In this document: in pieces, positions 34,201 to 37,200 of the stretch
How positions within the stretch are numbered: position 1 is the stretch's first letter
Layout of the letters: each line of letters starts with the position of its first letter
Origin: Escherichia coli
GTDB lineage: Bacteria > Pseudomonadota > Gammaproteobacteria > Enterobacterales > Enterobacteriaceae
Direction: 5' to 3' (one strand)
DNA: 64,000 nt
Assembly (NCBI RefSeq): GCF_051903065.1
Contig: NZ_CP178440.1
Position numbers: made by a program

Positions 34201-37200
34201 CCTTCGGGAAGCCGAGGGCTGGGGATGGTGCGCCGGACGCATGGAGCCTGTCGGTGAATGCCGTGAAGATGCCCGGGCATACCGCAACCTGCCGGAGCCG
34301 GAAGCGGTGCTGACGGAGGCGGAAGAAGAACACCTGAACGAACTGATGGCACGTTACGACGCGCTGGAAAACCAGTGTGAGGAATCTGACCTGCTGGCAG
34401 CAGAAATGAAGCTGATTGACTGCATGGCGAAGGTCAGGGCGTGGACGCCGGAGATGCGTGCCGGAAGTGGCGTGGTGGTGTCCTGGCGTTACGGTAATGT
34501 GTGTATCCAGCGTGGTGTGCAGTTGCGCAGTGAGGATGATGTGGCTGACGACGCTGACCGCACGGAACAGGGGCTGGAGAGCGCGTCAGTGGAGGAAATC
34601 AGTCTGCCGTTGCTGACTAAACTGACCTCAGAGCGCACGCTGGCAGTCCAGGCAGCACTGATGCAGCAACCGGACAAATCCCTGGCACTGCTGGCATGGA
34701 CGCTCTGCCTGAATGTGTTTGACAGCAAAGCGCACTGTAGTCCCGCCAGAATTCGCCTGGCATGTGAGCATTATGCGCTGACCAGCGATGCACCGTCGGG
34801 GAAGGAAGGTGCCGCATTCATGGCGCTGATGGCAGAACACTCTCGTTTTGCTGCCCTGCTGCCGGAAGGATGGGAACGGGATATGACGACGTTCCTGTCA
34901 CTCAGCCAGGAGGTGCTGTTATCCCTGCTCAGCTTCTGTACCGCGTGCAGTCTTAACGGTGTCCAGACCCGAGAGTGTGGTCACACGTCACGCAGTCCGC
35001 TTGACTCGCTGGAAACCGCCATCGGCTTTCACATGCGCGACTGGTGGCAGCCGACAAAAGCAAACTTCTTCGGACACCTGAAAAAGCCGCAGATTATCGC
35101 AGCTCTGAATGAGGCAGGACTGTCCGGTGCCGCACGGGACGCGGAGAAGATGAAGAAAGGCGATGCGGCTGAACATGCAGAGTTCCATATGAAAGACAAC
35201 CGCTGGGTGCCTGGCTGGATGTGTGCACCACGTCCACAGACGGATACCACTGAACGCACCGATAACCTGGCTGATGCCGCCTGATGAACAACCACACCGC
35301 CCCGCCGGAGACGGGGCGGCAGCAAGGGAGATACCGTGATGAAAACTGAACTGACCCTGAATGTATTACAGACCATGAGTGCACAGGAATATGAAGATAT
35401 CCGGGCTGCCGGAAGTGATGAACGCCGTGAGCTGACACACGCCGTGATGCGGGAACTGGATGCGCCGGACAACTGGACGATGAATGGCGAGTACGGCAGC
35501 GAGTTCGGCGGCTTTTTCCCCGTCCAGGTCCGTTTCACGCCTGCCCACGAACGTTTTCACCTGGCGTTATGTTCACCGGGCGATGTCTCTCAGGTCTGGG
35601 TGCTGGTTCTGGTGAATGCCGGTGGTGAGCCGTTTGCGGTGGTTCAGGTGCAGCGGCGGTTTGCACCGGAAGCTGTCAGCCATTCACTGGCACTGGCGGC
35701 GTCACTGGATGCGCAGGGGTACAGCGTTAACGACATCATTCATATCCTGATGGCGGAAGGAGGTCAGGCATGAGCGCACGTTCACAGGCACTGGTTCCTC
35801 TCAGCACAGAGCAACAGGCCGCATGGCGGGCGGTGGCGGAGACCGAAAAACGCCGCCATCAGGGTAACACGCTGGCTGAATATCCGTATGCGGGTGCGTT
35901 TTTCCGCTGTCTGAACGGAAGCCGCAGGATATCGCTGTCTGACCTGCGATTTTTCATGCCGTCCCTGACCGCAGAAGAACTGCACGGCAACCGTCTTCAG
36001 TGGCTGTATGCCATCGATGTGCTGATTGAAACACAGGGCGAGGTCTGCCTCCTTCCCCTTCCCGGCGATGCAGCAGAGCGCTTGTTCCCGTCGGTGCGGT
36101 TTCGTGTCAGGGAACGCAGTCGCCATAAATCCGCGCTGGTCATGCAGAAGTACAGCCGCCAGCAAGCGAGGGAGGCAGAGCAGAAAGCCCGTGCGTACCA
36201 GGTGCTGGTTGCTCAGGCTGAAATCGAACTGGCATTTCATTCACCGGAAACAGTCGGAAGCTGGCATGCACGCTGGAGTGACCGGGTGGCAGAGCATGAC
36301 CTGGAACCCCTGTTCTGGCAGTGGGGCGAGCGTTTTCCGTCACTGGCCGGAATGGAACGCTGGCAGTGGCAGGATATGCCATTCTGGCAGGTTATCGCGG
36401 AAGCCAGTCTGGCAGCCAGAGAGGCCGGTCATGCTGTCCGTGAGATGGAGCGGTGGATGGTGCCGAACAAACTCCGGGAGGCAGCGTGATGCGGCAATAA
36501 TCACACGGATTACCCGTGAACTGGTTGAACGACCAGATTATTTTCAGGGAAAGTGAGTGTGGTCAGCGTGCAGGGATATGAGCTATGATGTGCCCGGCGC
36601 TTGAGGCTTTCTGCCTCATGACGTGAAGGTGGTTTGTTGCCGTGTTGTGTGGCAGAAAGAAGATAGCCCCGTAGTAAGTTAATTTTCATTAACCACCACG
36701 AGGCATCCCTATGTCTAGTCCACATCAGGATAGCCTCTTACCGCGCTTTGCGCAAGGAGAAGAAGGCCATGAAACTACCACGAAGTTCCCTTGTCTGGTG
36801 TGTGTTGATCGTGTGTCTCACACTGTTGATATTCACTTATCTGACACGAAAATCGCTGTGCGAGATTCGTTACAGAGACGGACACAGGGAGGTGGCGGCT
36901 TTCATGGCTTACGAATCCGGTAAGTAGCAACCTGGAGGCGGGCGCAGGCCCGCCTTTTCAGGACTGATGCTGGTCTGACTACTGAAGCGCCTTTATAAAG
37001 GGGCTGCTGGTTCGCCGGTAGCCCCTTTCTCCTTGCTGATGTTGTACGGGCATGAACAACCTGACTTCAGGAAGGTCGTTTCCCTTCAGGAACGGGGATG
37101 AACGCGCGCCTGCGGCGCCCGTTCTTTTCCCCCGCCTTCTCTGGTTATGGCCTGTCAAAAATCACATCACCTTCCCTGTGATTATTCTCTTTTTCTTCCT

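Follow-up and report, generated by a model that had tools for sequence, protein, structure and literature searches.

In this study, we find that a 64,000-nucleotide stretch of Escherichia coli DNA (the window) almost certainly carries two unrelated post-segregational killing and maintenance modules of an IncFII (R100/pHN7A8-like) plasmid, the type I system hok/mok/sok and the type II system pemI/pemK. Both are present and, as judged from their sequence, intact. In line with a preliminary description of the same DNA, the modules are mechanistically independent and lie where this backbone would lead one to expect them, hok downstream of psiB-psiA and pem downstream of repA, a placement like that of R100. 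Hok/sok and pem have counted as textbook systems from the 1980s onward, and both modules described here are already known: at least 5000 plasmid records match the hok locus, and 3845 match the pem locus (2837 of them at 99% identity or above). As the cassettes are nearly unchanged across thousands of other plasmids, the observation is correct but ordinary. Sequence identity to known systems, integrity of the ORFs, the positions of the RNA elements (Table 1) and a predicted RNA pairing conserved across the family are established here. A tblastn search of the whole window for a further member of the Hok family, srnB for example, returned none, the ORF at 36769-36927 being the only one of its family, and no further toxin-antitoxin genes are annotated in the region shared with backbone relatives or were seen among the insert ORFs scanned.

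Table 1. Features of the two maintenance modules and of the surrounding leading region, in window coordinates
Feature	Position	Strand	Details
pem/parD promoter-operator (presumed)	2450..2528	+	Perfect 18-bp palindrome GTTATATTTAAATATAAC at 2508-2525; related upstream arm at 2450-2472 (inverted-repeat search)
pemI (kis), antitoxin, 85 aa	2543..2800	+	Pfam MazE_antitoxin PF04014, E 4.3e-07; UniRef 'Antitoxin PemI, PEMI_ECOLX'
pemK (kid), toxin endoribonuclease, 110 aa	2802..3134	+	Pfam PemK_toxin PF02452, E 1.8e-29, full length
Leading-region repeat copy A	23402-24026		blastn
Leading-region repeat copy B	26709-27349		Direct repeat with copy C; position of F Frpo2, before ssb
IS26-bounded insert, 5.1 kb	28847-33996		Between copy B and hok; holds an opposite-strand gene
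Terminator-like hairpin	36521-36536		After psiA, before hok
hok (mok-hok) promoter	36560..36589	+	-35 TGGTCA, 18-nt spacer, -10 TATGAT; 9/12 in consensus scan
Full-length hok mRNA (mok-hok bicistron)	36596..36993	+	R1 residue map; fold
tac element GGCGCUU, 5' end of hok mRNA	36596..36602	+	Pairs with fbi in predicted full-length fold
Sok antisense RNA gene, 64 nt	36657..36720	-	11-nt 5' tail GACUAGACAUA, long hairpin, U-rich 3' end
ucb / anti-SD of mok (R1 A70, G71, C72, C74)	36665..36669	+	R1 map; predicted pairing with mok SD (helix 4)
mok Shine-Dalgarno (SD) GAGG (R1 105-108)	36700..36703	+	R1 G105/A106 match; sequestered in predicted full-length fold
mok (modulator of killing) leader ORF, 70 aa, overlaps hok	36711-36923	+	ORF list; Pfam DUF5431, E 2.6e-41, full length
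Sok promoter (putative)	36727..36755	-	-35 TTGCGC at 36755-36750, 17-nt spacer, -10 TATCCT at 36732-36727; 7/12 consensus
hok SD AAGGAG	36754-36759	+	Precedes hok ORF
hok toxin ORF, 52 aa	36769-36927	+	Pfam HOK_GEF PF01848, E 1.2e-21, 76.5 bits (cutoff 22)
3' stem-loop of truncated (active) hok mRNA, GGCGGGC-GCAG-GCCCGCC	36937..36954	+	R1 G345 corresponds to 36940, C358 to 36953
fbi (fold-back inhibition) element AAGCGCC	36985..36991	+	Pairs with mRNA nt 1-7 in predicted fold
Second GC-rich hairpin GGGGCUGC...GUAGCCCC, then UUUCUCCUU	37000..37025	+	Read from sequence
Leading-region repeat copy C	37188..37828	+	99.4% against copy B, 88% against copy A
oriT nic-site motif (presumed) GTGGGGTGTGGTGCTTTT	39964..39981	-	Exact 18-mer

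The 52-aa Hok ORF and the overlapping mok frame had been described as intact, and both indeed give full-length Pfam matches. The exact Hok sequence bears the UniRef name 'Protein Hok, HOK_ECOLX', and the exact Mok sequence, named 'Protein FlmC homolog, FLMC2_ECOLX', is found on at least 1000 contigs. In related records, PGAP calls only a 41-aa Hok, from an internal GTG at 36802. With the overlap and the mok SD both present, translation of hok would be coupled to that of mok by likeness to R1. The promoter-like site upstream of the hok mRNA start is, by its sequence, an ordinary sigma-70-type consensus match; it ends 6 nt upstream of the presumed +1 at 36596, and its hexamers are the same in R100 and F. 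When +1 is set at 36596, all 20 numbered R1 residues of a published mutational map (PMC9841398) match, compared with 3-8 of 20 at other offsets, and the R1 hok primer matches exactly at 36693. The 3′ end of the mRNA falls at 36991 if the end is blunt and at 36993 if the molecule is 398 nt long. Folding of the 398-nt form gives a predicted structure of -175.9 kcal/mol (z -8.25) in which nt 1-7 pair with nt 390-396.

Rfam model RF01794, labelled 'sok', matches at 36595-36771 (88.9 bits), and we rejected this match as the location of Sok, since its alignment is to the sense-strand hok leader and ends at the hok AUG. We consequently located Sok by separate evidence, on the opposite strand. The published anti-Sok PNA-1 sequence TATGTCTAGTC (PMC1635323) is found exactly at 36710-36720 on the plus strand, which fixes the 5′ end of Sok at 36720. 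From there to 36657 the antisense RNA spans the mok SD and AUG; its minus-strand fold consists of the tail and a hairpin (-26.5 kcal/mol, z -6.3), and the region is identical to that of R100. The putative Sok promoter was read directly from the sequence and was not picked up by the consensus promoter scan, falling below threshold because just 7 of its 12 positions agree with the consensus. Its -10 element lies 7 nt before the +1, and the TTGC of the -35 element is kept in all ten aligned loci.

The structural elements of the mRNA are conserved as pairs. In ten loci that are 80-100% identical to the window, the tac/fbi helix never varies and is paired throughout while the coding region diverges. 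Overall, 91.1% of cells are paired, as against 35-44% with slid partners, a comparison that favours the predicted pairing over the slid controls, as the structure was derived from the window's own sequence. Compensatory changes occur in nine pairs, a number reached by none of 500 shuffles; in the 3′ stem-loop (helix 14) there is one compensatory exchange, CG to GC, in two distant loci. For the truncated mRNA, the fold of minimum energy differs from the open (tac-ucb) conformation that has been published; prediction of this kind is not expected to capture that conformation. In R1, residues G4, C5 and T6 of tac are essential, and mutation of G345 or C358 abolishes the truncated hok mRNA (PMC9841398).

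These last two residues bear on the downstream terminator of the preliminary description. A GC-rich hairpin followed by a T-run is real at 36937-36958, but it is not the end of the primary transcript, as the positions of G345 and C358 inside it mark it as the 3′ stem-loop of the processed mRNA; the full-length mRNA runs about 37 nt beyond it to fbi. The second GC-rich hairpin, further downstream, is possibly the true transcription terminator of the hok unit, a suggestion from sequence to which a weak, chance-level Rfam match reflecting the hairpin alone adds little. The range of 36680-36958 earlier assigned to hok/sok likewise proved too narrow, because the functional unit extends from the hok promoter (36560) to fbi (36991); the shorter range cuts Sok in half and misses the hok promoter, tac and fbi. 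Just 5′ of fbi, the window lacks 2 nt (GC) that R100 and F have. The deletion allele is common in nature, being carried by 1429 of 4211 matching plasmids.

Over 701 bp, identity of the hok locus is 100% with plasmid p1517k, 95.0% with R100 and 92.1% with flm of F. Alignment to reference loci had been proposed as the check; it was carried out directly for R100, while the R1 comparison rests on numbered residues, the primer and the PNA sequence, taken from three papers. Neither frameshifts nor promoter deletions were found. With parB (hok/mok/sok) of R1, the window shares the order of promoters, tac, ucb, SD, Sok, 3′ hairpin and fbi, with no difference among the 20 numbered residues, the primer and the anti-Sok PNA target. 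In R100/NR1 (hok) and F (flmA/B/C), the locus occupies the same position, in the order psiB, psiA, hok, Frpo-type repeat, DUF932 and oriT. F Hok (FlmA) differs from that of the window by one codon, CAC to TAC. By contrast, flmB, the F equivalent of Sok, differs by a 3-nt and a 2-nt deletion on opposite hairpin arms, carries several substitutions close to where mok starts, and thus represents a different antisense allele.

The pem module, earlier reported as intact beside repA1 at 2543-3134, has exactly those coordinates, a Pfam match for each gene (full-length for PemK) and a distance of 1685 bp downstream of repA, with the gene order and spacing of R100, where the gene at this place is annotated pemI. 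The region 2451-3300, operator included, matches R100 at 100% identity across all 850 bp, and no difference between the two was detected. PemK starts 1 nt past the pemI stop and is identical at 110 of 110 positions to the Kid toxin of R1 parD (kis-kid), whose crystal structure is available (PDB 1M1F/2C06); PemI belongs to the MazE/AbrB fold family. The chromosomal mazEF and chpBIK loci of E. coli share the toxin and antitoxin folds and the antitoxin-first bicistron, but are distant in sequence (MazF E 9e-09 versus Kid 1.8e-69), chromosomal and without linkage to a replicon. The promoter scan returned no consensus promoter for pem, which was instead located by reading the sequence and by identity to R100; the palindromes upstream of pemI we take, from established knowledge of R1 parD, to be the pem operator. 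For the operator of R1 parD, PMC4344636 cites Monti et al. 2007. Endoribonuclease activity of PemK, its neutralization by PemI and a role in plasmid maintenance would follow from the identity of the sequences to Kid/Kis (R1) and PemK/PemI (R100).

How the modules would act can be proposed from the literature on R1 and R100, from which RNA half-lives, processing, killing and autoregulation are carried over by analogy. The weak hok promoter would produce a stable mok-hok mRNA of about 396-398 nt that is born inactive, with tac paired to fbi and the mok ribosome-binding site sequestered. Slow exonucleolytic trimming from the 3′ end would halt at the stem-loop at 36937-36954 and free the 5′ end, so that the leader refolds and exposes the Sok target together with the site where mok translation begins. 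As long as the plasmid is present, the unstable 64-nt Sok would bind the mRNA through its 11-nt tail, blocking translation of mok and hence of hok, and RNase III would cut the duplex. Once the plasmid is lost, Sok would decay first, the truncated mRNA would be translated and the 52-aa Hok would damage the inner membrane. The pemI/pemK (kis/kid) bicistron would, under autoregulation, yield PemI, an antitoxin that is labile, and PemK, a stable endoribonuclease of the MazF fold. Loss or under-replication of the plasmid would leave PemK free to act on mRNA.

The leading region around hok contains three repeats of about 640 bp (copies A, B and C), which were found by blastn of the region following hok against the window. 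A direct-repeat search of the window yielded IS26 copies. As had been noted before, hok lies just upstream of copy C, at a distance of about 260 bp; copy B is about 9 kb upstream of hok. The order psiA-hok-repeat is common to F, R100, pT224A and p1517k. On the minus strand lies an exact 18-mer that we take, from the sequence of F oriT, to be the oriT nic motif; with that orientation, the entering single strand could serve as template for hok mRNA but not for Sok. The core of copy C is 96.7% identical to F 63562-64011, the flm-ygeA segment, and as single-stranded DNA its minus strand is predicted to form a hairpin of about 310 nt (z -9.6). In F, this segment was named Frpo1 by Couturier et al. 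and drives the genes downstream of it (PMC9849209). By sequence, copy C is the equivalent of F Frpo1 upstream of ygeA/DUF932, and it points away from hok.

Other readings of each module can be weighed against this evidence. The hok/sok copy might be intact at the level of its ORFs alone and otherwise a decayed, non-functional remnant, like the IS-inactivated hok loci of the E. coli K-12 chromosome, which we consider extremely unlikely. A Sok promoter with a weak consensus match that is absent from the promoter scan, the loss of 2 nt near fbi as compared with R100 and F, and the 41-aa Hok annotated in related records would all fit decay. However, that deletion allele is carried by about a third of matching plasmids, and the shorter Hok is a choice of start site in annotation that leaves the sequence unchanged. 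Moreover, all 20 functionally mapped R1 residues are kept, promoters, tac, fbi, SD, anti-SD, 3′ hairpin and Sok are all present, and no IS interrupts the unit. For pemI/pemK, the main role could be less killing than rescue of replication at the adjacent RepFII replicon: at low copy number the antitoxin would drop, Kid would cut the copB-repA mRNA and RepA would rise. We regard this as a serious possibility, if not the reading we would favor. The proteins are identical to Kis and Kid of R1, the distance between the module and repA, 1.7 kb, is that seen in R1 and R100, and the model has been published for R1 together with supporting data (PMC4344636). Nevertheless, rescue complements post-segregational growth arrest rather than excluding it. 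Both copB and its copB-repA leader fall before the first position of the window.

The location of hok/sok invites two further proposals. One is that the module mainly guards the leading region, such that recombination between copies B and C would delete ssb-psiB-psiA-hok/sok and Hok killing would counter-select the deletion derivatives; this would supplement, not replace, ordinary post-segregational killing. The two direct repeats are 99.4% identical and enclose hok, the psiA-hok-repeat order is kept in the four plasmids named above, and Couturier et al. made the same proposal for flm of F (PMC9849209), although that proposal cites no experiment. Yet after a deletion on one plasmid copy, sibling copies would still supply Sok in trans, so that killing would need segregation first, and no sequence feature separates a guard role from plain killing upon plasmid loss. 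We hold this role to be unlikely, though worth keeping in view. The other proposal, which takes up the early expression suggested in the preliminary description and is hinted at for leading-region toxin-antitoxin genes by Samuel et al. 2024, gives hok/sok an early role in establishment or against host defences, with transcription from the single strand as it enters. The orientation of hok does make the transferred (minus) strand its template; toxin-antitoxin genes are reported to be enriched in leading regions and to be located on the T-strand (Samuel et al. 2024, PMC11541004), and flmC is listed among the genes downstream of Frpo2 (Couturier et al., PMC9849209). Against this, copy C lies downstream of hok and, in the manner of F Frpo1, is directed away from it, so that a position upstream of copy C does not imply early expression. 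Copy B, for its part, is separated from hok by about 9 kb, by the 5.1-kb IS26-bounded insert with its opposite-strand gene and by the terminator-like hairpin after psiA, and the site in front of the hok mRNA itself is the ordinary sigma-70-type match. Timing argues in the same direction, as conversion from single- to double-stranded form is quoted at about 94-162 s for individual loci of the F leading region, while the 3′ trimming that activates hok mRNA is said to be slow. In our literature search, we found no paper measuring hok or flm expression early in conjugation, and two recent papers on early conjugative expression leave hok, flm and toxin genes unmentioned. An early-expressed function appears very unlikely, and the claim that copy C would place hok among the early-expressed leading-region functions is not supported. 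A functional meaning of where hok/sok sits in the leading region and of how it is oriented, through loading of hok mRNA ahead of Sok, policing of B-C recombination or both, is in our view improbable. If the first of these were true, read-through from a single-strand promoter could fill the new host with hok mRNA in its inert form before any Sok is made, so that the transconjugant would be committed to keeping the plasmid from the first minutes; in this plasmid, such early loading would be naturally uncoupled by the IS26 insert that separates copy B from psiB-psiA-hok.

In conclusion, we read the window as carrying two independent plasmid maintenance modules, hok/mok/sok and pemI/pemK. The practical value lies in annotation, as exact coordinates are now at hand for Sok, tac, fbi, the 3′ hairpin and the full 52-aa Hok. 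Automatic annotation omits or misplaces these same elements. The findings also bear, to a small degree, on whether leading-region toxin-antitoxin modules play a part in plasmid entry. That an IncFII plasmid bearing CTX-M and FosA3 has two independent maintenance modules helps explain how such plasmids persist without antibiotic selection.

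We identified two independent, intact addiction systems, hok/mok/sok and pemI/pemK, as the preliminary description had read and expected on this backbone, a pHN7A8/pT224A-like IncFII plasmid beginning at repA. The leading region runs repeat A, DUF3560 gene, methyltransferase, repeat B, ssb, DUF905 gene, ParB-like gene, psiB, psiA, hok/sok, repeat C, DUF932 gene, SLT gene, oriT, traM. Rfam also matched AS-pc01 (24162-24264, minus strand; antisense to pHK01_035, just downstream of repeat A), AS-traG (60937-61022, minus strand) and the FinP / traJ 5′ UTR pair (40767-40876), the antisense RNAs known from IncFII plasmids of the pHK01 type.

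Features of the addiction systems, leading region and resistance mosaic (window positions)
Feature	Position	Strand	Basis or remark
pemI	2543-2800	+	85-aa MazE-type ORF, Pfam
pemK	2802-3134	+	110-aa PemK_toxin ORF, Pfam; begins one base after pemI
IS1 insA	3383-3658		resistance mosaic
Tn3-family transposase fragment	3834-4439		resistance mosaic
IS91-family transposase	4841-6040		resistance mosaic
intI1, truncated (231/337 aa)	6884-7582		resistance mosaic
attI	7672-7746		with truncated intI1; no cassette before IS26
fosA3	10294-10731	-
blaCTX-M	13375-14250	-
Repeat copies A, B, C	23402-24026, 26709-27349, 37188-37828		direct, ~640 bp
IS26 copies, direct	28847-29666 and 33177-33996		bracket insert 28847-33996
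ParA-family ATPase gene	30302-30925		between IS26 copies
Trimeric-autotransporter-adhesin-like gene	31540-33048	-	between IS26 copies
Terminator-like hairpin after psiA	36521-36536		between repeat B and hok
Promoter-like site	36560-36589	+	TGGTCA / 18-nt spacer / TATGAT; promoter scan; ends 6 nt before +1
tac (mRNA 5′ end)	36596-36602	+	R1 numbering, +1 = 36596
Anti-SD of mok (ucb)	around 36665-36669	+	R1 numbering
mok SD GAGG	36700-36703	+	R1 numbering
Sok	36720 to ~36657	-	PNA-1 match; spans mok SD and AUG
Putative Sok promoter	-35 TTGCGC 36755-36750; -10 TATCCT 36732-36727	-	17-nt spacer; read by eye
mok	36711-36923	+	70-aa ORF, AUG 36711; Pfam DUF5431 (Mok/FlmC family), E 2.6e-41, full length
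hok	36769-36927	+	52-aa ORF, AUG 36769; Pfam HOK_GEF, E 1.2e-21
3′ stem-loop GGCGGGC-GCAG-GCCCGCC	36937-36954	+	R1 numbering
Second GC-rich hairpin	37000-37025	+	GGGGCUGC...GUAGCCCC then U-rich UUUCUCCUU; directly after fbi

The 52-aa hok ORF with its overlapping mok frame is present as described and Pfam-supported (HOK_GEF, DUF5431), hok being nested within mok in a different frame. Each exact protein sequence occurs in at least 1000 contigs, under the source names Protein Hok (HOK_ECOLX) and Protein FlmC homolog (FLMC2_ECOLX), and tblastn detected no other Hok-family ORF across the window. In related plasmids, RefSeq/PGAP gives a 41-aa Hok (WP_001372321.1) starting at an internal GTG (36802-36927); the form known from experiment is the 52-aa product starting at ATG 36769. 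Records of these plasmids mostly leave mok and Sok unannotated, or call them 'hypothetical protein' or 'protein sok'.

Sok-RNA is described as a 64-nt molecule whose 11-nt 5′ tail is single-stranded and complementary to the anti-Sok PNA-1 TATGTCTAGTC (PMC1635323). This sequence lies exactly at 36710-36720 on the plus strand, which sets the Sok start at 36720 and its end near 36657. The minus strand is predicted to fold (z -6.3) into a tail and a long hairpin whose end is U-rich. The putative Sok promoter matches the consensus at 7/12 positions and was missed by the promoter scan; the TTGC of its -35 is retained in 10/10 aligned loci. The Rfam family 'sok antitoxin (CssrC)' (RF01794) was rejected as a Sok locator: since its match (36595-36771) is on the plus strand, with a consensus that stops at the hok AUG, the family in practice models the sense-strand hok mRNA leader, not antisense Sok. 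The range first assigned to the locus, 36680-36958, starts mid-Sok and stops before the end of the primary transcript.

Saturation mutagenesis of R1 hok/Sok names many positions in hok-mRNA numbering (PMC9841398). With +1 at 36596, 20/20 named residues match (G4, C5, T6, G64, A70, G71, C72, C74, G105, A106, T117, G118, A169, G176, A227, T315, A320, T326, G345, C358), against 3-8 at neighbouring offsets, which places tac, ucb, the SD, both AUGs and the 3′ stem-loop. A 25-nt R1 hok primer also matches exactly at 36693. The predicted fold of the 398 nt from +1 (z = -8.25) pairs nt 1-7 (GGCGCUU) with AAGCGCC at 36985-36991, the published closure of tac with its 3′ partner fbi, and pairs the mok SD. 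The 3′ stem-loop had been called a terminator; because mutation of G345 or C358 in R1 abolishes the processed, active hok mRNA (PMC9841398), it is best read instead as the roadblock setting the 3′ end of that RNA. The primary transcript extends ~37 nt beyond it, past 36958. While the literature ends full-length hok mRNA at fbi, the second hairpin lies beyond, and may be the true (intrinsic) terminator of the unit.

Across 701 bp, the hok locus shares 100% identity with p1517k, 95.0% with R100 and 92.1% with F flm; at least 5000 plasmid records match it. Inside the hok mRNA, two substitutions set R100 apart, together with a GC dinucleotide just 5′ of fbi (36980/36981) that the window lacks. GC is present in R100, F and most others, the indel being a 2-nt change at a helix junction of the full-length mRNA, whose 3′ end here is 36991 (blunt) or 36993 depending on the R1 allele. 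As 1429/4211 matching plasmids share the GC-less allele exactly, this variant is natural and common. In F, the differences lie mainly in the Sok/flmB hairpin, both arms of which carry deletions. When the structure predicted from the window's own sequence was tested on ten aligned loci (down to ~80% identity), 91.1% of cells were paired, versus 35-44% with slid partners; with this same window-derived structure, compensatory changes occurred in nine pairs, which 0/500 shuffles reached. The tac/fbi helix is invariant across the ten loci despite coding-region divergence.

An exact match to the 18-mer nic motif of F-type oriT (GTGGGGTGTGGTGCTTTT) lies at 39964-39981 on the minus strand; the transferred strand is therefore the minus strand, the template for hok mRNA and not for Sok. 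As this motif falls within the long SLT (gene X/orf169-like) ORF 39372-40019, in its 5′ extension, the 215-aa call seems to over-extend the true start. Repeats B and C are 99.4% identical, A and C 88%; the core of C is 96.7% identical to the flm-ygeA segment of F (Frpo1) and 87.9% to the one immediately preceding F ssb (Frpo2). Repeat B, although at the Frpo2 position upstream of ssb, is still nearer Frpo1 (96.7%) than Frpo2 (87.9%), and A is nearer Frpo2 (93.4%), which suggests that the copies have undergone conversion or exchange. As single-stranded DNA, the minus strand of copy C is predicted to form a ~310-nt hairpin (z -9.6).

Couturier et al., who named Frpo1 and Frpo2, showed that each drives its downstream genes from single-stranded DNA (PMC9849209). 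Early hok expression had been proposed from its position just upstream of copy C; the position holds, but copy C, judged by its sequence, faces away from hok, and so would confer no such expression. Copy B is the only candidate single-strand promoter upstream, and between it and hok stand an IS26 pair with a ParA-type and an opposite-strand gene, a disrupted ParB-like gene and a hairpin. Given the direction of copy C, these barriers, a literature search that found no report of hok or flm being expressed early in conjugation, and the quoted single- to double-strand conversion times for single F leading-region loci (~94-162 s), early expression here is unlikely. The IS26-bounded unit disrupts the leading-region ParB-like gene, ~96 bp of which is missing relative to p1517k, and shows no 8-bp target-site duplication. 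It parts psiB-psiA-hok from ssb and repeat B, in the interval where R100 carries Tn10. Couturier et al. proposed that flm, between Frpo1 and Frpo2, guards the intervening segment against recombinational deletion (PMC9849209), and the geometry of B and C, as near-identical direct repeats, would fit such a guard.

Both pem ORFs were found where first placed (2543-3134), and alignment to R100 (91262-92111, annotated pemI, pemK) gave 100% identity over the 850 bp of 2451-3300. The exact PemI (Antitoxin PemI, PEMI_ECOLX) and PemK (PemK-mt) sequences each occur in at least 1000 contigs, and the locus has 3845 matching plasmid records, 2837 at ≥99% identity. PemK is identical to Kid toxin (PDB 1M1F/2C06) at 110/110 residues; the closest solved relatives of PemI are MazE proteins. 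Two sequences upstream of pemI, an 18-bp palindrome without mismatch at 2508-2525 and a related arm at 2450-2472, are presumably the operator sites for Kis-Kid known from parD. The repA stop lies 1685 bp from pemI, with a CPBP-family gene in between, a layout shared with R100. The R1 module has also been reported to rescue replication via lower copB mRNA (PMC4344636); copB lies outside the window. From pem to the stbAB/parMR region, 3383-15426 forms a resistance mosaic that also holds several IS26 copies, fosA3 and blaCTX-M.

In conclusion, three points are corrected here: where the locus begins and ends, what the hairpin means, and the inference of early expression. Both systems are already known, having been characterised decades ago, and are found on thousands of plasmids.
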